The position numbers were made by a program, and so were the translations under genes. 64,000 bases of DNA from NCBI GenBank assembly GCA_021816695.1, contig JAKAXE010000004.1:61-64060 (forward strand), written 5' to 3'. Below are positions 48,901 to 59,945 of this stretch, piece after piece (positions within the stretch are counted from its first letter, which is position 1; each line of letters starts with the position of its first letter). Source of the stretch: a bacterium (GTDB lineage Bacteria > Chloroflexota > Dormibacteria > Aeolococcales > Bog-877). Under the pieces are notes generated by a model that made no database searches, was not told the origin of the DNA, and was given only the letters and a program-made list of their open reading frames with translations.

Positions 48901-50199
48901 ATGGACTACCGTGAGTCGCTGGCGGCGCTGGCCGCATCCAGCCGGCCGGGCATGCGCCTCGGCCTGGACTCCACCAGGGCCCTCTGCCGGGAATTGGGTG
49001 ACCCTCAGGACCAGCTCACAGGAGTCCTGGTGGCGGGCACCAACGGTAAGGGCTCGGTCTGCGCCCTGGTCGCGGCCATGGCCAGGGCTGCCGGGCTGCG
49101 CGTGGCACTCCTCACCAAGCCCCATCTCACCAGCTACCGGGAGCGGGTCCAGCTGGGGGAGCGCCCGGTCGCGGAGGAGGAGTTCGCCCGCCTGGCAGCC
49201 CAAGCCCTGGAGGCCGCCCGCCGAGGGGGGGTGGACGCCACCCACCACGAACTCCTGACGGCGATGGGGTTTCTCGCCGCAAGGGAGTGGGGTGCCGAGG
49301 TCACCGTGTGTGAGGTGGGGCTGGGAGGGCGGCTGGACGCCACCAACGTCTGGGACGGCGGGGTGGCGGTCGTGGTCTCGGTGGGGCTGGATCACCAGGC
49401 CCAGCTGGGCGACACCGTGGCCCAGATCGCCGGCGAGAAGGCGGCGATCTTCAAGCCGGGTGACCTGGCCATCTCCGGGGCCCTGGGGGAGGCCCGGCCG
49501 GTGGTGCGGGCGGCCGCCGCAGGGGTGGGCGCGGAGCTCTGGCAGCTCGGAGAGGGGATCGAATACGCCTGGGAGGCGGCGGGACTGCGGGTCCGGACCC
49601 CGGCCCGGGAGCTGGGCGAACTGGAACTGGGGGTGACCGGCCAGGTGCAGGGGGCCAACGCCGCCGTGGCCGTGGCCGCCACGGACGGCCTGGGCCGGCT
49701 GCTGGGAGCGGAGATCGGTGAGGGAGCGGTCCGGCAGGGATTGCTGGGGGTCCGCTGGCCGGGACGGCTGGAGGAGGTGGCCACCTCCCCCACCGTGCTG
49801 GTGGACGCGGCTCACAACCCGGCCGCCGTCGAGGCGGTCCTGGGGGAGCTGCGGGCAGCCACCGGGGGCCGGCGGGCGGTGCTGCTGTTCGGGTCCATGG
49901 GCGACCACGACCACTCAGGGATGCTGGCCCGGCTCTCGTCCCTGCCCCTCTGGGCGGCGGTCTTCACCAGGGCCGACGCCATCCGGGCGGTGGAGCCCGA
50001 GGTCCTGGCCCGCGAGTGGCCCGGGAGATCGGAGCGCCTGGTGCCGGTGGCGGCGGCGCTCTCCCGGGCACGGGAGCTGGCCGGTCCCGAGGGGGCGGTG
50101 ATCGCCCTCGGTTCGATCTACCTGGTCGGAGAGGTCATGGCCGAACTGGGAATCGGCCTCCCGCCCGATCCCAAGGTGGCCTGGCGGCCCGCCTACTGA
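48901..50199 (+). CDS. folC: Folylpolyglutamate synthase/dihydrofolate synthase
   Basis: VAGTNGKGS, TKPHLTSYRER, EVGLGGRLDATN, WPGRLE, DAAHNP, GSIYLVGE. Confidence 0.95.
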   Translation: MDYRESLAALAASSRPGMRLGLDSTRALCRELGDPQDQLTGVLVAGTNGKGSVCALVAAMARAAGLRVALLTKPHLTSYRERVQLGERPVAEEEFARLAAQALEAARRGGVDATHHELLTAMGFLAAREWGAEVTVCEVGLGGRLDATNVWDGGVAVVVSVGLDHQAQLGDTVAQIAGEKAAIFKPGDLAISGALGEARPVVRAAAAGVGAELWQLGEGIEYAWEAAGLRVRTPARELGELELGVTGQVQGANAAVAVAATDGLGRLLGAEIGEGAVRQGLLGVRWPGRLEEVATSPTVLVDAAHNPAAVEAVLGELRAATGGRRAVLLFGSMGDHDHSGMLARLSSLPLWAAVFTRADAIRAVEPEVLAREWPGRSERLVPVAAALSRARELAGPEGAVIALGSIYLVGEVMAELGIGLPPDPKVAWRPAY

Positions 50200-50223
50200 A
50201 CTGCGGCTGAGGGCGCCGCCGGG

Positions 50224-50871
50224 TCAGACGGGGAGCGGGGCGGCCTCCGCCAGCGCCCGCCGGCAGAGCTGGGTGATCTCCTCCCACCTCTCCTCCCGCA
50301 GGAGGCCGGGCCGGAAGAGGTCGTTGGTCAACCCCACCACCCGGACCCCGGCGGCGAGGTACTCGGTGACGTCCCCGATCCCCACCATCCCGCTGACCCA
50401 GAGGGGCACCTCGGGCATCGGCCCCCGGACGGCGCGGATGTACTCGGGCCCGCCCAGGGGGTTGGCCGGGAACACCTTGACCAGACCCGCCCCCAGCTCC
50501 ATCGCCCGGGCGATCTCGGTGGGGGTGCTGGCCCCCATCACCAGCAGGACCCCGGCCTGCCGGGCCACCTCGGCCACCTCGGGGACCAGGTACGGGGTGA
50601 CCAGGTATTCGGCTCCAGCCCCGAGCGCGGCCTCGGCCAGCTCAGCGCTGGTGATCGTCCCGCCACCGAAGTGGCAGCTCGAGCCGAACTCCTTCCGCAG
50701 GCGGGCGATGGTCTTGAACGCCCCCGGGGTGCCCGAGGTGACCTCAACCGACCCGACCCCCGCCCGAGCCGCCGCCTCCGCCCCGCGATACGCCTGCTCC
50801 CCGTCGGACCAGCGCATGACCGCTGCCAGGCGGGTCGGGAAGTAGGTGGCGATCTGGTCGGGCTGGGTCAT
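50224..50871 (-). CDS. eda: KDPG/KHG aldolase family protein
   Basis: VEVT (catalytic Glu), GGGTI, TPTEI, VKVFPA (Schiff-base Lys), GGPEYIRAVRGPMP; SD AAGGAG. Confidence 0.85.
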   Translation of the reverse strand: MTQPDQIATYFPTRLAAVMRWSDGEQAYRGAEAAARAGVGSVEVTSGTPGAFKTIARLRKEFGSSCHFGGGTITSAELAEAALGAGAEYLVTPYLVPEVAEVARQAGVLLVMGASTPTEIARAMELGAGLVKVFPANPLGGPEYIRAVRGPMPEVPLWVSGMVGIGDVTEYLAAGVRVVGLTNDLFRPGLLREERWEEITQLCRRALAEAAPLPV

Positions 50872-51128
50872 CAGGTGGCTCTCCTTCATCTGCGGGGGGC
50901 TGCGCCGGCTCAGAGGCCGACCGGCCATGGCGGTGCTTCGCCGGAGCTGGCGGAGCCGGACGTGAACTGGATCCCGGAGCCCAGTATGGCGCGGGGCGCT
51001 GGATCACTTCAAGGGAAGCTGGCCGTGGGCGCGGCTCCTGAACGGATCCGACGGCTCGCCCGCCACCGCCGGAGTCGCCCGTCCCCTTCGAACCGGTGGG
51101 TCCCACCCCACCGGGAGCCGCGGCATGA

Positions 51129-51158
51129 TTGACACGTGCCGATATAGGCATGTAATCT
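51129..51158 (+). promoter_or_regulatory. Promoter TTGACA-N18-TAATCT with imperfect palindrome ACGTGCCGATATAGGCATGT (51134-51153), probable ArsR operator
   Basis: Read directly; 16 of 20 positions self-complementary; ATG 6 nt after the -10. Confidence 0.7.
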
Positions 51159-51164
51159 CCAGCC

Positions 51165-51554
51165 ATGGCCCGAGCTTCGACCACCAGCGACGCCTTCAAC
51201 GCCGTGGCCGAGCCGCGCCGACGACAGATCCTCGATGCCCTGGCGGGCGGTGAGCACTCGGTCGGCGAGCTGGCCCAGCGCCTGCGGGTCGCCCAGCCGG
51301 TCGTGTCCAAGCACCTCAGGGTGCTTCGCGACGTGAACCTGGTGGCCCGCCGGGACCAGGGGCGCCGGCGCCTCTATCGGCTGAACGGGGCGGCGCTCCG
51401 GCCGATTCACGAATGGCTGCGCCGGTATGAGGAGAGCTGGTCTGGGGCGTTCGACCGCATGGAGATGGTGCTGCAGACGCTGGAAGCACAGGAGGAACTG
51501 CAACATGGCCAAGGAGCAGAGACGCAGGGCTCTGGTCACGCTGCCCAGAGATGA
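51165..51554 (+). CDS. ArsR/SmtB-family transcriptional regulator
   Basis: DAFNAVAEPRRRQIL, QPVVSKHLRVLRDVNLV, GRRRLYRL. Confidence 0.92.
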   Translation: MARASTTSDAFNAVAEPRRRQILDALAGGEHSVGELAQRLRVAQPVVSKHLRVLRDVNLVARRDQGRRRLYRLNGAALRPIHEWLRRYEESWSGAFDRMEMVLQTLEAQEELQHGQGAETQGSGHAAQR

Positions 51555-52002
51555 TCAGATCCTGATCACCCGGGAGTTCACGGCGCCGCGCGCCCTGGTC
51601 TACCGCGCCTACACCACCCCGGAGCTGGTGGCGCAGTGGTGGCACGCCGACCGCGGGACCATCGACAGCATCGAGATCGACCTCCGGGTGGGTGGCAGGT
51701 GGCGCTACGCCATGACCGCCAACGGCGGCTTCCCCGTAGTCTTCCATGGCGAGTACCTGGAGATCGTGCCGGCGGAGAGGATCGTGTCGACCGAGGTCTT
51801 CGAGGGGATGCCCGAGGCGGCGGCAACCAGCACCGTGACCTTCAGCGACACGGCCCAGGGCACCACCCTGGCGATCCTGGTGCAGCACAAGAACCGGGCC
51901 AATCGCGACGTCCACCTGCACTCGGGAATGGAGGACGGGCTCCAGGAAGCCATGGACCACCTGGAGGAGGTGGCGTCGGCCCAGGGGAGCAGGGATGGTT
52001 AG
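51505..52002 (+). CDS. SRPBCC/AHSA1 (START-like) ligand-binding protein
   Basis: ITREFTAPRALVYRAYTTPELVAQWW, DLRVGGRWRY, GEYLEIVP. Confidence 0.9.
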   Translation: MAKEQRRRALVTLPRDDQILITREFTAPRALVYRAYTTPELVAQWWHADRGTIDSIEIDLRVGGRWRYAMTANGGFPVVFHGEYLEIVPAERIVSTEVFEGMPEAAATSTVTFSDTAQGTTLAILVQHKNRANRDVHLHSGMEDGLQEAMDHLEEVASAQGSRDG

Positions 52003-52128
52003 CAGCCGACCGAGCTACCGCACCTCCCCCCGGGATCATTCCCCGGCCTTCCCGGGACCCGGCACGGCTGGGCAGGGGGCGGGGACGCGAGCCCCGGTGC
52101 CCGCGCCCCCCCGCCGGGCCGGAGGCGC

Positions 52129-53688
52129 TCAGAGGCGCTCGGCGATGCTCTGCCCCTGCATGAAGAAGAGCAGGTAGTCTGGCCCCCCGGCCTTGGTGTC
52201 GGTGCCGCTCATGTTGAACCCGCCGAAGGGGTGGACGCCCATCAGGGCGCCGGTAGACTTGCGGTTTACGTACAGGTTGCCGACGTGGATGCGCTCCTTG
52301 GCGAAGGCGATCCGCTCCGGGTCGCGGCTGAAGTAGGAGCCGGTGAGCCCGTACTCCGTGGAGTTGGCGATGCGGATGCCGTCCTCGAAGTCCCGGGCGG
52401 GCATGACCGCCAGAACCGGGCCGAAGATCTCCTCCTGGGCGATGCGGGCCTCGGCCCGGACCCCGGAGAAGACCGTGGGCTCGATGTAGTAGCCCTCACC
52501 CGGGGGCTTCCGCCCCCCCAGCACCAGCTCCCCCTCGTGCTTGCCTACCTCGATGTAGTCGAGGATCTTCTCCTCGGCGGCCGAGTCCACCACCGGGCCC
52601 ATGGTCACCTTGGGATCCACCGGGTCCCCGAGCCGGATCTCCCGGACCCGGTCCAACACCTTGGTTAGCAGCTGGTCATACACCTCCTGCACCACCACGG
52701 CCCGGGAACCCGCCGAGCACTTCTGGCCCTGGAAACCGAAGGCGGAGATGGCGATGTCGCGGGCGGCGCGGTCCAGGTCGGCGGTCTCGTCCACCACCAC
52801 CGCGTTCTTGCCACCCATCTCCAGCTGTACCCGCTTCAGCCAGCGCTGCCCGGGGTGCACCCGAGCGGCCCGCTCGTTGATCCGCACCCCCACCTCACGC
52901 GAACCGGTGAAGGCCACGAAGCGTGTCTGGGGGTGGTCCACCAGCGGGTCCCCAACCAGCGATCCCCTCCCGGTGAGCAGGTTGATGACCCCCGGAGGCA
53001 GGCCGGCATCCTCCCAGATCCGCACCAAAAAGGCGGCCGTGGTGCAGGCGGTGTTGGCGGGCTTGAGAACGACGCAGTTGCCCGCCACCAGGGCCGCGGT
53101 GGTCATCCCGGTGGTAAGCGCCACCGGGAAGTTCCAGGGGGAGATCACCGCCCCCACCCCGAGCGGGATGTAGCGGAACTGGGTGATCTCCCCGGCGATG
53201 GGGGCGGTCCGGTCGCCGGCGGCGAACTGCAGCGCCTGCCGGGCATACCACTCCATGAGGTCGACCGCCTCCGCCGCCTCGCCGTCCGCCTCATCCCAGG
53301 GCTTGCCCACCTCGTACACCATCACCGCGGCCAGCTCGTGGCGGCGGCGGCGGACCAGCTCGGCCGCCCTCACCAGCACCGCGGCCCGCTCCTCCACCGG
53401 TGTCCTGGACCACTCCGGGAACGCTTGCCAACCGGCCGCCAGCGCCTCCTCGACATGCTCGAGCTGTGCCGCCGCATGCCGCCCAACCACCTGGTCGGGG
53501 TGGGCCGGGTTGACGGAGACGATCTGCTCAGTGGAGCCCACCCGGCGCCCCCCGATGATCAGCGGGTAGTCCTCTCCCAGCCGACCCTCCATCTGCCGGA
53601 GGGCGGCCCGCATGGCCTCCTGGTTGGCCGGGATGGAGAAGTCCAGGGCGGGCTCGGTGGAGAAGGGGGGAAGGTTCATGGGCGTCAC
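52129..53688 (-). CDS. pruA: L-glutamate gamma-semialdehyde (P5C) dehydrogenase
   Basis: ISPWNFP, FTGSREVG, LEMGGKN, FGFQGQKCSAGSR, EEIFGP, TDTKAGGPDYL. Confidence 0.96.
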   Translation of the reverse strand: MTPMNLPPFSTEPALDFSIPANQEAMRAALRQMEGRLGEDYPLIIGGRRVGSTEQIVSVNPAHPDQVVGRHAAAQLEHVEEALAAGWQAFPEWSRTPVEERAAVLVRAAELVRRRRHELAAVMVYEVGKPWDEADGEAAEAVDLMEWYARQALQFAAGDRTAPIAGEITQFRYIPLGVGAVISPWNFPVALTTGMTTAALVAGNCVVLKPANTACTTAAFLVRIWEDAGLPPGVINLLTGRGSLVGDPLVDHPQTRFVAFTGSREVGVRINERAARVHPGQRWLKRVQLEMGGKNAVVVDETADLDRAARDIAISAFGFQGQKCSAGSRAVVVQEVYDQLLTKVLDRVREIRLGDPVDPKVTMGPVVDSAAEEKILDYIEVGKHEGELVLGGRKPPGEGYYIEPTVFSGVRAEARIAQEEIFGPVLAVMPARDFEDGIRIANSTEYGLTGSYFSRDPERIAFAKERIHVGNLYVNRKSTGALMGVHPFGGFNMSGTDTKAGGPDYLLFFMQGQSIAERL

Positions 53689-53708
53689 TCCTGAAGGCGG
53701 GCCACAGC

Positions 53709-54635
53709 TCAGCGCCGGACCAGGTTTCGGGCGAGAAACAGGACGTTGGCGGGGCGCTCGGCCAGCCGGCGCATGAAGAAGGGGTACCAGTGGGTCCCGT
53801 AGGAGACGGCCACCAGCACCGTGTAGCCCCGGGAGACCAGCTGGCGCTGGAGGTCGGGGCGCACTCCGTACAGCATCTGGAATTCGAAGCGGTCCCGGGG
53901 GATCCCCTTGCGGAGGGCGAAGGTCACCGACTCCTCGATGATCTCCGGGTCGTGGGTGGCGAGGGCGGTGTAGCCACCGCCGGAGAGGGCCAGCTCCATC
54001 ATGCGCAGGTAGTTGCGGTCCACGTCCTGCTTGCGGGGGAAGGCCACCTGCACCGGCTCGAGGTAGGCGCCCTTGACCAGCCGCAGGTTGGGGCTGAGCG
54101 GCAGGAGCTGCTCCAGGTCCTGGTAGCTGCGGAAGAGGTAGGACTGGAGCACGCAGCCCACGTTGTCGTAGCCGAGCTCGCGCAGGTGGCGGTAGGCGTC
54201 CAGGGTGGGCTGGACGTGGGCCGAGTCCTCCATGTCGATGCGGATGAACAGACCCAGCTCCCGCGCCAGGTCCAGGAGGTGGGCCAGGTTGCGCTCCGCG
54301 AGCCCGGGGTCGATGTCCTGCCCCAGGAGGGTCAGCTTGAGCGCCGCGTTCGCCCGCAGCCCCTCAGAGGCCATCCGCCGCAGCAGGACCTCGTAGTCCC
54401 CCACCGCCCGGGCGGCGTCAGCCTCGGTGGCGACCGCCTCACCCAACTCGGTGGCGTTGCACTTGAATCCGGCCTGGTTCAGCCTGCGGATGGTGTCCAC
54501 CGCCTGGTCCAGGGTCTCCCCGGCCACGAACCGGGAGGCGCCCAGCCTCATGCCGTACCGGTTCATGAACCGTTCCGTGCCCCGATTGCCGGCGGCCAGC
54601 AGGATGGCCGACCGCGCGGCCCCGTTCAGCGGCAA
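53709..54635 (-). CDS. putB: Monofunctional proline dehydrogenase
   Basis: RFVAGE, RIDMED, LQSYLFRS, RLVKGAY, ATHD, EFQMLYGVR, FMRRLAERPAN. Confidence 0.95.
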   Translation of the reverse strand: MPLNGAARSAILLAAGNRGTERFMNRYGMRLGASRFVAGETLDQAVDTIRRLNQAGFKCNATELGEAVATEADAARAVGDYEVLLRRMASEGLRANAALKLTLLGQDIDPGLAERNLAHLLDLARELGLFIRIDMEDSAHVQPTLDAYRHLRELGYDNVGCVLQSYLFRSYQDLEQLLPLSPNLRLVKGAYLEPVQVAFPRKQDVDRNYLRMMELALSGGGYTALATHDPEIIEESVTFALRKGIPRDRFEFQMLYGVRPDLQRQLVSRGYTVLVAVSYGTHWYPFFMRRLAERPANVLFLARNLVRR

Positions 54636-54675
54636 GGTCGGTCGGTTCGCCCGACGGGGCGGCCAAAGACGCAGC

Positions 54676-55824
54676 TCATCCGCTCACCTCCATAAGGCGG
54701 GATGCCTCGAGCGGCCCGATCGGCCGCAGCGGCCGACCCTCCAATACCAGGTCGGCCATCAGCTCGCCGATCACCGGGGAGAACTTGTAGCCGTGCCCGG
54801 AGAAGCCACAGGCCACCTGGACCCGGGAGCACTCCGGGTGCGGACCCAGGGCGAAGTCACCGTCCGGGGTGTTGGTCATCAGCCCGACCCGGGCGCGCAC
54901 CACCGGCGCCGCCCGCAGCGAGGGGGCGACGTTCCCGATCCCCTCGCGGATGGCCGCCAGCTCCTCCTGATGGCACTCGCGGTCCACCGAGTCGGGGGCG
55001 GTGACCTCCCCTCCGTGATGCCGGGCGACCTTGACCGTCACACCGTCCAGGGTAGGGAAGCCGTACCAGGAATGGCCGGGATCGTGCTGGTAGTAGAAGG
55101 CCGGCAGCCGGTCCGGCGCGAACGACTCCACGACCGCCGGGCGCAGCCACACCATGACCTGCCGCTCCACCGTGAGCGGCAGCTGCCAGCCCCGCAGCAG
55201 CTTCGCCGTCCAGGCCCCAGCCGTGAGCACCAGGTGGTCGAATCGAAGCTGGCCCGAGGGGGTCTCGACCAAGACCCCGTCCGCAGTGGGCGCCCAGGAG
55301 AGCGCCGGCTCGCCGAAGCGGAGAGATGCACCGGCGCCGGCGGCCGCCCGCAGGTGGCAGAGCACCCCGGCCTCCGGCCTCAGCACCCCCGCACCCGGTT
55401 CCAGAAGAGCGGTGACGCCGCGGGGAGGATCCAGGGCGGGGAACTCCCGCCGAACCTCGGAGGCGGTGAGAAGCCGGGCCTCCAGGCCGTACTTCCGGGA
55501 GCTGGCCAGCGCCCCCCGCACGAGGCCCGAATCCGGGGCCCCCAGGATCAGCCCGCCGGTTATCTGCAGGATCGGCTCGCGGCACTCCGCCTCCAGCTCC
55601 CGCCAGAGCTCGTAGGCGCGCAGGACCAGGGGAACGTAGGCGGGGTCCGAGTAGTAGGCCTGGTGGATCACTCGGGACTCGCCGTGCGAGGAACCCAGGT
55701 CGTGACCGGGTCCGAAGGCCTCCAGGCCCACCACCCGAGCTCCCCGCCGGGCCAGATGGTAGGCGCTGGCGGCGCCCATGGCCCCCAGGCCGACCACGCC
55801 CACCAGGGGCCGCGCCCCCGTCAT
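54676..55824 (-). CDS. SolA/monomeric sarcosine oxidase-family flavoprotein
   Basis: GLGAMG, GSSHGESRVI, TAGAW, TPDGDF, GFSGHGYKF; flavinylation Cys absent. Confidence 0.88.
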   Translation of the reverse strand: MTGARPLVGVVGLGAMGAASAYHLARRGARVVGLEAFGPGHDLGSSHGESRVIHQAYYSDPAYVPLVLRAYELWRELEAECREPILQITGGLILGAPDSGLVRGALASSRKYGLEARLLTASEVRREFPALDPPRGVTALLEPGAGVLRPEAGVLCHLRAAAGAGASLRFGEPALSWAPTADGVLVETPSGQLRFDHLVLTAGAWTAKLLRGWQLPLTVERQVMVWLRPAVVESFAPDRLPAFYYQHDPGHSWYGFPTLDGVTVKVARHHGGEVTAPDSVDRECHQEELAAIREGIGNVAPSLRAAPVVRARVGLMTNTPDGDFALGPHPECSRVQVACGFSGHGYKFSPVIGELMADLVLEGRPLRPIGPLEASRLMEVSG

Positions 55825-55873
55825 GCCGCCCCGACCCCCATCATCGCCCCCCAGCAAGTGGACACCAACGAGT

Positions 55874-56860
55874 CTAAGCTCTCGGCCGCACCCCCTCCGG
55901 AGGAGCGGCCACCGGCGGGCTGGAGGACAGCTGCGGCGCACCCGAGCCCCCCCGGCTCCCACCCACCCGACGCGGACGCGGCCGTCCCAGAGCGACCCCC
56001 ACCAGCATGATCGCACCTCCCAGGAGCTGCAGCGGCAGGACCGCCTCCCCGATCAGGAGGGCCGCGGCCACCACCGCGATGAACGGCTGCAGGTAGGTGT
56101 AGGCGGAGGTGCGGGCTGGTCCCAGCCGCTCCAGGCCGACGAGGAACAGCCAGGTGGTGGCCACCACGGCCACCAGCGAGCTGTAGGCCAAAAGGCCCAC
56201 CCACCCGAGGTTGATCCGGGGCGGGCTGGCCACCGCCTCCACGGCGCCGAAGGGCAGGAGCATGAGCGCCCCCAGGACGGTCACCAGGGCGGAGAGGGTG
56301 AGGGGACGGTGCTGCCGCAGAAGTCTGGGCAGCACGAGCAGGTAGGCGGCCCAGCTGGTGGGCATGATCAGAGCCACCACAATTCCCAGCGCGCTGGCCC
56401 GGGCCCCGCCCCCCGTGTCCACCACCAGCGCCAGCCCCGCCAGCCCCAGCCCCAGCCCCACCCAGACCCTCCTGCCGAAGTGCTGCTTGCTGACGGCCGC
56501 CAGCCAGCCGGCCACCATGAGGGGAGTCGCCGCCTGCACCAGGGCCACGAAGTCGGCGCTGTTGAGGGCCAGCGCCCCGGTGAAGCTGGCCTGGTTGATG
56601 GCGGTGCCCAGGGCGGCCGCCGTGAGGACCAAGGCCAGGTCCCGGCCCCGGGGGAGACGGACCGGGCCCTCCAGCCGCCAGGCCAGGAGCCAGAGCCCGG
56701 CGCCGCCCAGCAGGAAGCGCACCGCCGCGTAGAAGAGGGGACCGCTGTCGGTGAGGGCCACCTTGACCACCACCACGTTCACGCTCCAGGCTGCGGTGAC
56801 CAGGAGGATCACCAGGTCCGCACGCGTCAGCGACCGGCCCGCCAGCCCCACCTTCCTCAC
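55874..56860 (-). CDS. EamA/DMT-family transporter
   Basis: About 10 TM helices in two EamA repeats; YTYLQPFIAV..LIGE. Confidence 0.9.
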   Translation of the reverse strand: MRKVGLAGRSLTRADLVILLVTAAWSVNVVVVKVALTDSGPLFYAAVRFLLGGAGLWLLAWRLEGPVRLPRGRDLALVLTAAALGTAINQASFTGALALNSADFVALVQAATPLMVAGWLAAVSKQHFGRRVWVGLGLGLAGLALVVDTGGGARASALGIVVALIMPTSWAAYLLVLPRLLRQHRPLTLSALVTVLGALMLLPFGAVEAVASPPRINLGWVGLLAYSSLVAVVATTWLFLVGLERLGPARTSAYTYLQPFIAVVAAALLIGEAVLPLQLLGGAIMLVGVALGRPRPRRVGGSRGGSGAPQLSSSPPVAAPPEGVRPRA

Positions 56861-56996
56861 TTTTCAGAGGATAGGCCGCCTCCCTCACTAGGCCTCCCCC
56901 TCCCGGTCCGGTCAGGCGGAGGGCGGGAGAACCGTAGTCAGGTATACAATATGGGCGCGGCGGGATGGCAGCTCCGTCCGGTATTCGAGGTGGAAC

Positions 56997-58319
56997 ATGG
57001 CACGGAACGCGGACGGAGTGAAGCAGGGGGACCCCGGCACCTCCCAAGGTGGCGCGCCGCTCCCCTCGGACGAGGACCGGAGAGGAGGGTCAGGAAGCGC
57101 CTGGAGGGTGCTGGGAACCACCTCCCTCGCCCACTTCGTCAATGACGGGACGGTGTTCTTCGTCCCGGTGATGGCCGACCTGTTGGCCAGCCGCGGCCAC
57201 GTCTCTGCGCCGGTCATCACGGTGATGCTCACCGGGTTCTACCTCAGCTCCAGCGCCGCCGGGATCCTGATCGGGCGGCTGGCTGACTCCGGCGGCAGCC
57301 GGGGGGCCAAGATGGCGATGGGGATCCTGGGCCTGGCCGCCGGGCTGCTGCTGTTCGCGGCGGCGGTGGCCGCTCCGGATGTGACAGAGAGGACGGTGCT
57401 GGCGCTCCTGGCGGCGCTGGTGGCCGGAGTCGGCAGCTCCGTCTACCACCCGCTGGGAGCCAGCCTGATCATCGCCGCCTTCCCACCCCGCGGCCGGGCC
57501 CGGGCGCTGGGGGCCAACGGCGCCATGGGAAGCTTGGGGCGGGCGCTGTATCCCACACTCTTCTTCGCGGTGACCGGGCTCATCGCCTCCCAGACCGGTG
57601 CGGTCGTGGTCTTCGCCGTGGTGGCCGCGGGGGCGGCGGTCCTGCTCTGGACCACCCGGGTGGACTCCCGGCCCGTCGCCGGGGCCGGGGCCCACTCCCC
57701 GGTCGCGACCGGCGGCGCCCCCCAGAGGGCCTGGCTGGACCGCAACATCGCCATCCTCACCGTGGTCTCGCTGCTGCGGTCTTTGGCCTTCACCGGGATG
57801 GTGGCCTGGCTCCCCACCTACTTCACCCGGGAGCGGGGGCTCGGGCTCTCCGGGGAGCTGGGCCTGATGGTGACCCTGCTGTACGCCGGTGGGATCGTGG
57901 GCCAGCCGGTGTTCGGGCTGCTGGCCGACCGGGTGGACAAGCGGCTCATGCTGGCCCTAGCCACGCTGGGCGCGGCAGGCACCACCTTCGGATACCTCAA
58001 CGTGGGCGGTGCCGGAGGGCTGGCCCTCCTGGGCCTGTTCGGGGTCTTCAACTTCAGCGGCTTCCCCCTCCTCATGTCGCTGGTCGCCGACTACGCCCCT
58101 AAGGGCAGCTCCTCGACCGCCAACGCCTTCGTCTGGGGGCTGGGATCCACCGGGGGGCAGGCGCTGGGGCCACTGGTTATCGGGCTGCTGGCGCTCAGCT
58201 CCTACCGGCACCTGGCGGTCTCCTTCGAGTCGCTGGCGCTGGTGGCGGTGGCCGGCCTGGTCGGCCTGCTGCTCCTCCCCCGCGCCGGGAGGCGATCCAA
58301 GGCCCAGCTGTTCGGCTGA
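56997..58319 (+). CDS. MFS transporter (Fsr-like)
   Basis: LAHFVNDG, GRLADSGG, SSVYHPLG, GLLADRVDKR; start uncertain. Confidence 0.85.
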   Translation: MARNADGVKQGDPGTSQGGAPLPSDEDRRGGSGSAWRVLGTTSLAHFVNDGTVFFVPVMADLLASRGHVSAPVITVMLTGFYLSSSAAGILIGRLADSGGSRGAKMAMGILGLAAGLLLFAAAVAAPDVTERTVLALLAALVAGVGSSVYHPLGASLIIAAFPPRGRARALGANGAMGSLGRALYPTLFFAVTGLIASQTGAVVVFAVVAAGAAVLLWTTRVDSRPVAGAGAHSPVATGGAPQRAWLDRNIAILTVVSLLRSLAFTGMVAWLPTYFTRERGLGLSGELGLMVTLLYAGGIVGQPVFGLLADRVDKRLMLALATLGAAGTTFGYLNVGGAGGLALLGLFGVFNFSGFPLLMSLVADYAPKGSSSTANAFVWGLGSTGGQALGPLVIGLLALSSYRHLAVSFESLALVAVAGLVGLLLLPRAGRRSKAQLFG

Positions 58320-58328
58320 GCGGCACCG

Positions 58329-58466
58329 TCAATGGTGGCGGCGCACCATTCCCAGCATCTTGAGATTGATGCGCAGGAACCTCCAGGCCTGCCAGGGGAG
58401 GAAGGTGCGCAGGAAGACGGTCCACCGGGTGGGCAAGGTGACGGAGGCGGCCTCTTCGTCAGGCAC
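58329..58466 (-). CDS. Small 45-aa amphipathic protein downstream of SQR (below the ORF-track cutoff)
   Basis: GTG 58466 to TGA 58329 reads MPDEEAASVTLPTRWTVFLRTFLPWQAWRFLRINLKMLGMVRRHH; AGGGGG SD; GC3-rich codons. Confidence 0.7.
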   Translation of the reverse strand: MPDEEAASVTLPTRWTVFLRTFLPWQAWRFLRINLKMLGMVRRHH

Positions 58467-58493
58467 AGCTGGCCCCCTGTTGGGCACCCTGAC

Positions 58494-59945
58494 CTACTCC
58501 GGGATCAGGGGCCAGCCGGGGCGGAGCTTGGCCTTGTAGATGAACATGTGGTGCAGCAGGATCTTGATCCAGTGCCCGGCCAGGCCGATTTCGCCGAACG
58601 TCCGCTTCATGTCGCGTCCGTATCCCGGGTAGCGCTCGTAGTCGGGCACGACCGGGTACACGGTCATCGAGGCGGCCGTGCCGGAGAAGGGGTTGGCCCC
58701 GGCCGAGGCGACGCAGGCGGCCCCCATCTCGGCCATCGAGGCGGTCGCGGTGGGGCGGGGCGCACCCCTCAGCATGTCGACGACGCTCCGGGCCACCGCC
58801 CTGCCGATCTGGGCCGAAGGCATTCCCGTGCGTGGGGCGGCCGGGGTGATGACCGTGCCCCGGGGGCTGGTGTGGGGGCGGGAGATGGGATGAGGCGGTG
58901 CGAAGGCGATCCCCGCCGCGAAGAGGTTGGGATAGGCGGGTGACTGGTAGGTGCGGGGCCAGTCCCGCGCCGACCACTCCTCGAAGGGCCGCGGGGTGTA
59001 GTCCCCGTCCACCCGCATGAACCCGTTGGGCTGGAACAGCCGGTCGGTGATCTCCGTGCCCTGGCGGTCGAACGCCCGGAGCCCCACACCCGAGAAGGGG
59101 GGGAGAAGCATGGCGAAGTCGAACCCCAGCTCTGCCTCGCCCCCGTCGAGGGTCTCGTAGGACAGCCGATCGGGCTCCACCTTGCGCACGTGGGCCCGGG
59201 TTATCCAGCTGATGCCCCGCTCGGCGAAGAGGGAGGCCGTGAAGATGCTGGCGGGTATGAGGTACCCGGAGCGGCGCATCTGCATCCCGGCCATCCCGAA
59301 GTCCCCCAACTCGTACTCGTTGGTGATCCAGACGATCTCGGCGAGCTCCCGCACCTTGCGGGCCCTCAGTTCGAACTCCAGGTTGACGATGTACTCGAAG
59401 GCCGCTCCCTCGCAGGTGCATCCTCCATGTCCCACCCCGACCACGAAACGCTGGCGCTGGCCCCGCCGCATCCGCTCGACCGCTCGGTCCAGCGCCCGAG
59501 CCGCCAGCTGGGCATGCTCCGGGGTGCAGACCGACATGCTGTTGGCCTCCGGCCCCAGACCCTCGGTCATGTCGAAGCGCAGCCGGGGTCCCGTGGCGTT
59601 GATGAGGAAGTCGTAAGGCAGCCGAAGGAAATCGCCATCCCCGCCCGCCACCCTCTCCACGGCGACGAAGGGCCGGGAATCGCCCGCGTCACCCTCCGGA
59701 TGAATTTGGCGGGCGAAGCCGTGGACGAACTCGATTCCGTGCCGCTCGTAGACCGGGGCCAGCGGGAAGGTCACCTGGTGTGGCTGCATCAGGCCCACCC
59801 CGACCCAGATGTTGGACGGCACCCAGTTGTAGCGGTCGACCGGGGAGACAACGGTGACGGTTTCAGTCCGAGGAAGCCACCTCCGCGCGAAGGAAGCGGC
59901 CGTGTGCCCGGCGATACCCGACCCGAGCACCACCACCCGGCTCAC
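58494..59945 (-). CDS. sqr: Sulfide:quinone oxidoreductase-family flavoprotein
   Basis: GSGIAG; SVCTPEHA, CTCEGAAFEY, PRTGM and AACVAS align with SQR FAD-linking and catalytic Cys motifs. Confidence 0.8.
   Translation of the reverse strand: MSRVVVLGSGIAGHTAASFARRWLPRTETVTVVSPVDRYNWVPSNIWVGVGLMQPHQVTFPLAPVYERHGIEFVHGFARQIHPEGDAGDSRPFVAVERVAGGDGDFLRLPYDFLINATGPRLRFDMTEGLGPEANSMSVCTPEHAQLAARALDRAVERMRRGQRQRFVVGVGHGGCTCEGAAFEYIVNLEFELRARKVRELAEIVWITNEYELGDFGMAGMQMRRSGYLIPASIFTASLFAERGISWITRAHVRKVEPDRLSYETLDGGEAELGFDFAMLLPPFSGVGLRAFDRQGTEITDRLFQPNGFMRVDGDYTPRPFEEWSARDWPRTYQSPAYPNLFAAGIAFAPPHPISRPHTSPRGTVITPAAPRTGMPSAQIGRAVARSVVDMLRGAPRPTATASMAEMGAACVASAGANPFSGTAASMTVYPVVPDYERYPGYGRDMKRTFGEIGLAGHWIKILLHHMFIYKAKLRPGWPLIPE

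Follow-up and report, generated by a model that had tools for sequence, protein, structure and literature searches.

What role does an amine oxidase have in a proline catabolic operon when it no longer carries the cysteine that links the flavin in its relatives? The question is raised by a 64,000-nucleotide stretch of DNA (hereafter the window; about 70% G+C) from contig 22 of G000, a metagenome-assembled genome (MAG) of an uncultured soil/mine-drainage member of the Dormibacterota (2.49 Mb, 142 contigs, 89% complete). Near-identical DNA is present in mine-drainage and sediment metagenomes. Four co-oriented genes in the window encode an EamA/DMT-family permease, an MSOX/MTOX-family amine oxidase dependent on flavin adenine dinucleotide (FAD), a monofunctional proline dehydrogenase (ProDH), and an L-glutamate gamma-semialdehyde dehydrogenase (P5CDH) (Table 1). 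We call the oxidase OX_G. We put at about 50% the probability that the four genes form one operon in which OX_G works as an oxidase of amines or imino acids, with non-covalently bound FAD and a rebuilt substrate-binding site, a reading based on sequence comparison.

OX_G lacks the flavin-linking cysteine and three other active-site residues

The initial annotation of this locus had placed the oxidase in the MSOX/MTOX family of secondary-amine oxidases. Profile and structure matches both support this placement. OX_G matches PF01266 and scores 391 bits against the hidden Markov model (HMM) NF008425, 'N-methyl-L-tryptophan oxidase', for which the cut-off is 257. Against TIGR01377 (soxA_mon) it reaches 239 bits, below the cut-off of 480. 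Its best relative of solved structure is TrSOX (7exs; 45% identity, phmmer 5.5e-87). The AlphaFold2 model of OX_G (pLDDT 92) has the two-domain DAO/GR2 fold, with TM-scores of 0.94 to 7exs and 0.93 to MSOX, and the dinucleotide-binding motif (GxGxxG) reads GLGAMG. Enzymes of this family attack secondary amines, cyclic imino acids among them, by oxidation of the C-N bond (PMC12582975, PMC8892156).

In the loop ARVGLMTNTPD, the flavinylation Cys and the Tyr near it had been reported missing, and both translation and HMMER alignment to 7exs and 1el5 bear this out. Gly314 falls on the Cys of VTCLYTMTPD (TrSOX Cys312) and of AVCMYTKTLD (MSOX Cys315), and Met316 falls on MSOX Tyr317. FAD is covalently attached to Cys312 in TrSOX (PMC8892156). 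As the flavinylation Cys is absent, we infer that any FAD in OX_G must be non-covalent, in agreement with the earlier proposal.

Two further changes, absent from the initial annotation, are found in the loop SSHGESRVIHQAYYS, where His54 stands for Arg52 and Ser59 for Glu57 (MSOX numbering). The carboxylate group of the substrate is anchored by Arg52, Tyr55, and Lys348, residues described as conserved across the Sox family (PMC12582975). The carboxylate clamp is thus incomplete in OX_G, which keeps Tyr55 and Lys348 but has His54 in place of Arg52. The same loop retains the equivalents of His45, Arg49, and Tyr55. The flavin-side and O2-activating residues His45, Arg49, Lys265, and His269 are kept in OX_G and in all sequences of its type, which have Gly or Ala at the Cys position (G-type). 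OX_G also keeps the equivalents of Tyr254 and His345.

The substitutions are rare and confined to two loops

To place these changes we compared OX_G with its best 120 matches among 5.8 billion proteins. Only the four closest of the 120 (71-95% identity) combine Gly or Ala at the Cys position with His at Arg52. The remaining 116 are Cys-type homologues with at most 58% identity. Arg52, Glu57, and Cys315 are each present in 116/116 of them, and Tyr317 in 115/116. All G-type sequences have His at Arg52, one of Ser, Pro, or Ala at Glu57, and Gly or Ala at Cys315. Gly or Ala at the Cys position was seen in six related genomes (five intact genes and the pseudogene of G005) and in four metagenome proteins, which rules out a sequencing artefact.

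A more diverse set was made up of 150 representatives of 50%-identity clusters, 38-54% identical to OX_G. The Cys is found in 147 of 149 of these representatives and Arg52 in 147 of 150. P0195 is an independent case of loss, with Arg52 replaced by Phe, Glu57 by Met, and Cys315 by Gly. The other Cys-less representative, P0218, has a degenerate sequence. P0159 and P0161 have lost Arg52 and Glu57 and kept the Cys. A metagenome scan with P0195 alone gave no matches. With an alignment of the Arg52-less group, the scan gave 80 loci, none of them Cys-less and none linked to ProDH or EamA. In the literature library searched we found no report of a natural Cys-less MSOX-family enzyme or of a cluster of MSOX, ProDH, and hydroxyproline genes.

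At 64 positions the Cys-type set is at least 98% conserved, and 56 of these are unchanged in the G-type. The only non-conservative changes among the 64 are at Cys315, Arg52, Glu57, and Tyr317, all in the two active-site loops. Read from the alignment, the pattern is one of remodelling aimed at the active site and not of decay throughout the protein.

OX_G is a genus-restricted paralogue of a Cys-type oxidase

The G-type sequences form one clade (SH-aLRT 100) inside the Dormibacterota Cys-type clade, on a stem of 0.26 substitutions per site. OX_G is restricted to a single genus, g1, represented by eight genomes including G000. The sister genus g6 has G012, and g4 has G010 and G023. The oxidases of these last two genomes, which are from the same family as G000, are nearly identical to P0032 and P0045, proteins that NCBI labels Candidatus Dormiibacterota, and this places the source of the window in the Dormibacterota. 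P0005 and G001 belong to a lineage that has the Gly and the His and retains Tyr317, indicating that Cys315, Arg52, and Glu57 were lost before Tyr317.

EamA adjoins OX_G in all g1 genomes with the region assembled (G001, G002, G003, G004, G006, and G007 besides the window). The initial annotation had made its prediction depend on linkage of the oxidase to ProDH and P5CDH in relatives, and this linkage was found. OX_G adjoins ProDH-P5CDH in G000, G003, G006, and G007, in G001 across a contig break, and as a pseudogene in G005. The junction between OX_G and ProDH is homologous in the first four genomes, implying a single event. In G004, however, the two are separated: a convergent gene comes after EamA and OX_G, and ProDH lies about 10 kb away, beyond further genes. 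The convergent gene is of the OCD/mu-crystallin type, with Pyr2C/Pip2C reductase as its best NCBIfam match, below the cut-off. Next come a five-gene Liv-type ABC importer, two DAO-family genes, and a canonical Cys-type paralogue, OX_C (56% identity), which lies directly upstream of ProDH-P5CDH.

In G004 a mobile repeat with at least nine copies, mostly at contig ends, splits OX_C near codon 43 (the break lies at L022 19397-19801 and L032 1-125, the end of contig 6 and the start of contig 18). The first open reading frame (ORF) of the repeat has a helix-turn-helix-like N-terminus, and the repeat is absent from G000. It is probably an insertion sequence element.

In G012 (L029 1-11500) the gene order is Liv ABC, GntR/FCD, DAO, OX_C, DinB/MDMPI-like, ProDH, P5CDH, proline-racemase-family, and KHG aldolase, with FolC convergent. 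Here OX_C carries an in-frame TAA. The best match of the proline-racemase-family protein is trans-3-hydroxy-L-proline dehydratase. The locus as a whole resembles an imino-acid catabolic island.

OX_C was not found in G000, G003, or G006, and OX_G is the sole MSOX-family gene in most g1 genomes. The Cys enzyme was the original ProDH neighbour and has been deleted or inactivated in g1, and OX_G is a paralogue with EamA, not ProDH, as its fixed partner. A Cys-less oxidase in a proline operon, as first described, is present in the window, but the form is limited to one genus and is a paralogue of the enzyme that holds the original ProDH-adjacent position in G004 and G012.

In g4 (G010 and G023; L030 and L031), OX_C is directly downstream of a KHG/KDPG aldolase gene and convergent with FolC, with ProDH elsewhere. 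The unpublished genome G014 (L033) has the same arrangement; no claim made here rests on it alone. The recurrent adjacency of oxidase and aldolase in g4 may stem from metabolism of hydroxyproline or glyoxylate, or from synteny alone. A hydroxyproline route through P5CDH and KHG aldolase was considered and set aside as speculative, given that g4 keeps ProDH elsewhere and that the linkage may be FolC synteny.

Among 80 more distant Cys-type loci, linkage to ProDH/P5CDH recurs only in the Rubrobacteraceae. In these bacteria (L036, L037, L041, and L048) an aldehyde dehydrogenase gene, its product about 30% identical to P5CDH, precedes the Cys-type oxidase, and ProDH-P5CDH is divergent. It is an independent recurrence of the linkage between the oxidase and proline catabolism. 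In mycobacteria and streptomycetes, a frequent neighbour of the Cys-type oxidase is an unrelated aldehyde dehydrogenase.

Purifying selection and alternative explanations

Pairwise dN/dS (Nei-Gojobori) across six genomes is 0.06-0.21 for OX_G, compared with 0.09-0.28 for ProDH, 0.13-0.20 for EamA, 0.12-0.19 for the divergent MFS transporter gene, and 0.04-0.17 for P5CDH. The similarity to the neighbouring genes indicates that OX_G is under purifying selection.

These values bear on whether OX_G could be a relic paralogue in the course of being lost, crippled or very weak, and kept mainly by its position within a useful operon. Four otherwise invariant active-site residues are gone, OX_G is a pseudogene in G005, and other MSOX-like copies are decaying too, as seen from the repeat insertion and the in-frame TAA in the OX_C genes of G004 and G012. 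We consider a relic unlikely all the same, with dN/dS on par with that of neighbouring housekeeping catabolic genes, changes to family-conserved positions only in the two active-site loops, and a confident structural model. Moreover, lineages that have diverged to 71% identity share His54 and have Gly at residue 314, apart from one with Ala.

It is less probable still that OX_G does the same job as the canonical Cys enzyme, as a sarcosine- or MTOX-type oxidase of N-methyl or secondary amino acids, and replaced the canonical copy with a version whose FAD is dissociable. The joint loss of Arg52, Glu57, and Tyr317 argues for altered substrate binding beyond the cofactor linkage. An independent Arg52-less clade is found in secondary-metabolite contexts (see below), which shows that the residue at this position tracks substrate class. 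A simple replacement would fit the NF008425 score above the cut-off, the location of OX_G upstream of ProDH, where G004 and G012 have the Cys copy, and the lack of any other MSOX-family gene in most g1 genomes. Both the relic and the replacement fit the selection data and the coordinated loss of Arg52 and Glu57 less well than does a functional oxidase with rebuilt substrate binding.

A possible route into proline catabolism

OX_G arose by duplication of a canonical Cys-containing MSOX/MTOX-like enzyme, which gave a paralogue restricted to g1. The paralogue lost the cysteinyl attachment site (8-alpha-S; Cys to Gly or Ala), the Arg52 of the clamp (to His), and Glu57, and later, in most lineages, Tyr317, and retained the dinucleotide fold and the flavin-side catalytic residues. 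If OX_G is a functional oxidase, FAD would be held non-covalently. Its substrate, a secondary amine or an imino acid positioned otherwise than sarcosine, may then be oxidized at a C-N bond. Uptake of the substrate would probably be by the EamA permease, and the product, a P5C-type cyclic imine or aldehyde, or proline, would be passed to ProDH and P5CDH for conversion to glutamate. OX_G would be transcribed together with ProDH and P5CDH in most of g1.

As to the substrate, the loci of relatives cluster imino-acid genes around the Cys paralogue. These code for a Pyr2C/Pip2C-reductase-like OCD protein, DAO-type dehydrogenases, a trans-3-hydroxyproline-dehydratase-like protein, and the Liv-type ABC importer, which points to a proline-related compound as the substrate of OX_G. 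The cyclic imino acids L-Pro, D-Pro, and pipecolate are minor substrates of MSOX (PMC12582975).

The more specific suggestion in the initial annotation, that the oxidase is an N-methylproline demethylase or a pipecolate oxidase feeding proline to ProDH, suits the operon link with ProDH and P5CDH and a family that demethylates N-methyl amino acids and weakly oxidizes pipecolate and proline (PMC12582975, PMC8892156), but it is very improbable: N-methylproline belongs to the tertiary amines, as does dimethylglycine, which inhibits MSOX (title of PDB 1EL5); no proline-betaine pathway, betaine, or Rieske demethylase genes were seen at or near the locus; pipecolate oxidation would require a P6C dehydrogenase rather than ProDH; and neither compound is singled out by sequence.

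Several observations weigh against a functional OX_G serving proline catabolism. In G005 (L028 2611-3197) the OX_G gene is a pseudogene, with residues 191-242 deleted, a frameshift, and a TGA stop. It is 71% identical to the OX_G of the window, and the adjoining intact ProDH and P5CDH are 94-97% identical, so OX_G is dispensable in at least one lineage. The separation of the genes in G004 shows that co-transcription of OX_G with ProDH is not obligatory. No proline-racemase-family or OCD-family genes were found in G000 (89% complete), and the imino-acid toolkit of its relatives is thus missing there. Finally, engineered MSOX Cys315Ala is isolated mostly as apoprotein and binds FAD weakly.

A bolder form of the functional-oxidase reading, offered tentatively and with some doubt, is that a natural switch from covalent to dissociable FAD, within an MSOX/MTOX clade in which the link is otherwise universal, was coupled to the dismantling of the Arg52/Glu57 clamp and produced an oxidase for a new substrate class, imported by its own EamA permease and converted via P5CDH to glutamate. 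Examples of such a class would be imino acids with a hydroxyl or other modification, or amines bound in the absence of the classical clamp.

Organization of the locus

The order EamA, oxidase, ProDH, P5CDH in one orientation, as initially annotated, was confirmed from the minus-strand ORFs and their Pfam and NCBIfam matches. The intergenic gaps are 49, 40, and 20 nucleotides. There is no terminator-like site between the four genes, and a promoter and terminator scan of positions 50000-58500 gave nothing above chance.

Table 1. Features of the window, with positions numbered from its first nucleotide.
Feature	Position	Strand	Evidence
EamA/DMT-family permease, 328 aa, first operon gene	55874..56860	-	PF00892, two repeats, 2.4e-36
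OX_G, MSOX/MTOX-family FAD amine oxidase, 382 aa from ATG	54676..55824	-	PF01266 5e-57, NF008425 391 bits
ProDH, monofunctional proline dehydrogenase, 308 aa, TTG start	53709..54635	-	PF01619 6e-35, 121.6 bits
P5CDH, L-glutamate gamma-semialdehyde dehydrogenase, 519 aa, last operon gene	52129..53688	-	NF002852 763 bits, TIGR01237 702 bits
OX_G loop ARVGLMTNTPD: Gly314 for flavin-linking Cys (MSOX Cys315), Met316 for Tyr317	54862..54894	-	Translation, HMMER alignment
OX_G loop SSHGESRVIHQAYYS: His54 for carboxylate-clamp Arg52, Ser59 for Glu57	55648..55692	-	Translation, alignment
Candidate operator/promoter element, 19-nucleotide box ATTGTATACCTGACTACGG in EamA/MFS divergent spacer	56932..56950	-	Conservation
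MFS transporter, 440 aa, divergent from operon, shares conserved intergenic box	56997..58319	+	PF07690 1e-41
ArsR-family helix-turn-helix regulator	51165-51554	+	Codon-position GC, Pfam
AHSA1/SRPBCC protein	~51554-52002	+	Codon-position GC, Pfam

The permease has the two EamA repeats and the length of about 300 aa of the EamA/DMT family. It scores 85 bits against TIGR00950, below the cut-off, and no specific equivalog model reaches its cut-off. The ORF of OX_G extends upstream of the ATG to a GTG at 56016, a start that would overlap EamA. ProDH aligns over its full length with the Thermus-type model NF045947 at 311 bits, below the cut-off of 500. P5CDH scores over the cut-offs of both NF002852 and TIGR01237 (660 for the latter), and the two genes form an adjacent pair of a monofunctional ProDH and a TIGR01237-type P5CDH.

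Facing P5CDH, a convergent plus-strand gene ends at 52002. A candidate fifth operon gene, 'orf214' (51316-51960, minus strand), was rejected as a shadow of the plus-strand ArsR and AHSA1/SRPBCC genes on the basis of codon-position GC and Pfam. P5CDH is therefore the last gene of the operon, and the gene for the KHG/KDPG aldolase (50928..50224) is outside it in the window genome.

On the other side of the operon, the divergent MFS gene is syntenic in G001, G003, G004, and G007, is a remnant in G002, and is absent from G006. Five genomes carry the box ATTGTATACCTGACTACGG in nearly invariant form in the spacer between the MFS gene and EamA, among them the divergent G001, whose remaining spacer is not conserved. 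The box occurs once in the window, with 0 occurrences expected by chance. In its left half, ATTGT..AC, it is similar to the GntR operator ATTGTCGACAAT and so may be a GntR-type operator.

Comparison with known systems

TrSOX from Thermomicrobium roseum shares the two-domain fold and the flavin-side residues with OX_G. Unlike OX_G, it has Arg, Glu, and Tyr at the positions of His54, Ser59, and Met316, and its FAD is covalently bound. MSOX from Bacillus sp. B-0618 (1el5, 2gb0, 9u3b-f) is 33% identical to OX_G, which has equivalents of its His45, Arg49, Tyr55, Tyr254, Lys265, His269, and Lys348. The two differ by Cys315 to Gly, Arg52 to His, Glu57 to Ser, Tyr317 to Met, and Met245 to Tyr. With MTOX/SolA from E. 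coli (2uzz), OX_G shares the naming model NF008425. The covalent Cys of MTOX is absent from OX_G, however, and the match to 2uzz, at 166 bits, is lower than that to MSOX. The automatic name 'N-methyl-L-tryptophan oxidase' would be misleading for OX_G, and our data do not support N-methyltryptophan as its substrate.

Closest are the OX_C enzymes of the Dormibacterota (G004 contig 18, G010, G023, and P0006-P0017), a sister clade with 51-57% identity to OX_G. They share with it a neighbourhood of ProDH-P5CDH, KHG/KDPG aldolase, and FolC. They differ from it in keeping the Cys, Arg52, Glu57, and Tyr317 and in having no EamA partner.

A group of Arg52-less MSOX-like enzymes (L114-L117; P0159 and P0161) and NikD resemble OX_G in being without Arg52 and Glu57 (Trp/Leu; Met/Tyr). 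In contrast to OX_G, they keep the flavinylation Cys and have no proline catabolism neighbours. On the metagenome contigs of L114-L117, the neighbours are genes for a Lys/Orn N-monooxygenase and a luciferase-like monooxygenase, or AMP-binding, ACP, and acyltransferase genes. From these neighbours, their roles look biosynthetic and NikD-like. The secondary-metabolite contexts of this clade show that a change of substrate class brings with it a replacement of the clamp.

OX_G is a rare and narrowly distributed enzyme whose changes are mechanistically suggestive. It does not bear on a major open question, and would add to the almost unknown amino-acid metabolism of the Dormibacterota. In the MSOX family, the covalent flavin link is thought to hold weakly bound FAD and to raise its redox potential. 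A member selected in nature without the link and without three other invariant residues is a ready-made evolutionary experiment. OX_G could reveal the purpose of the covalent bond and the residues that co-depend on it.

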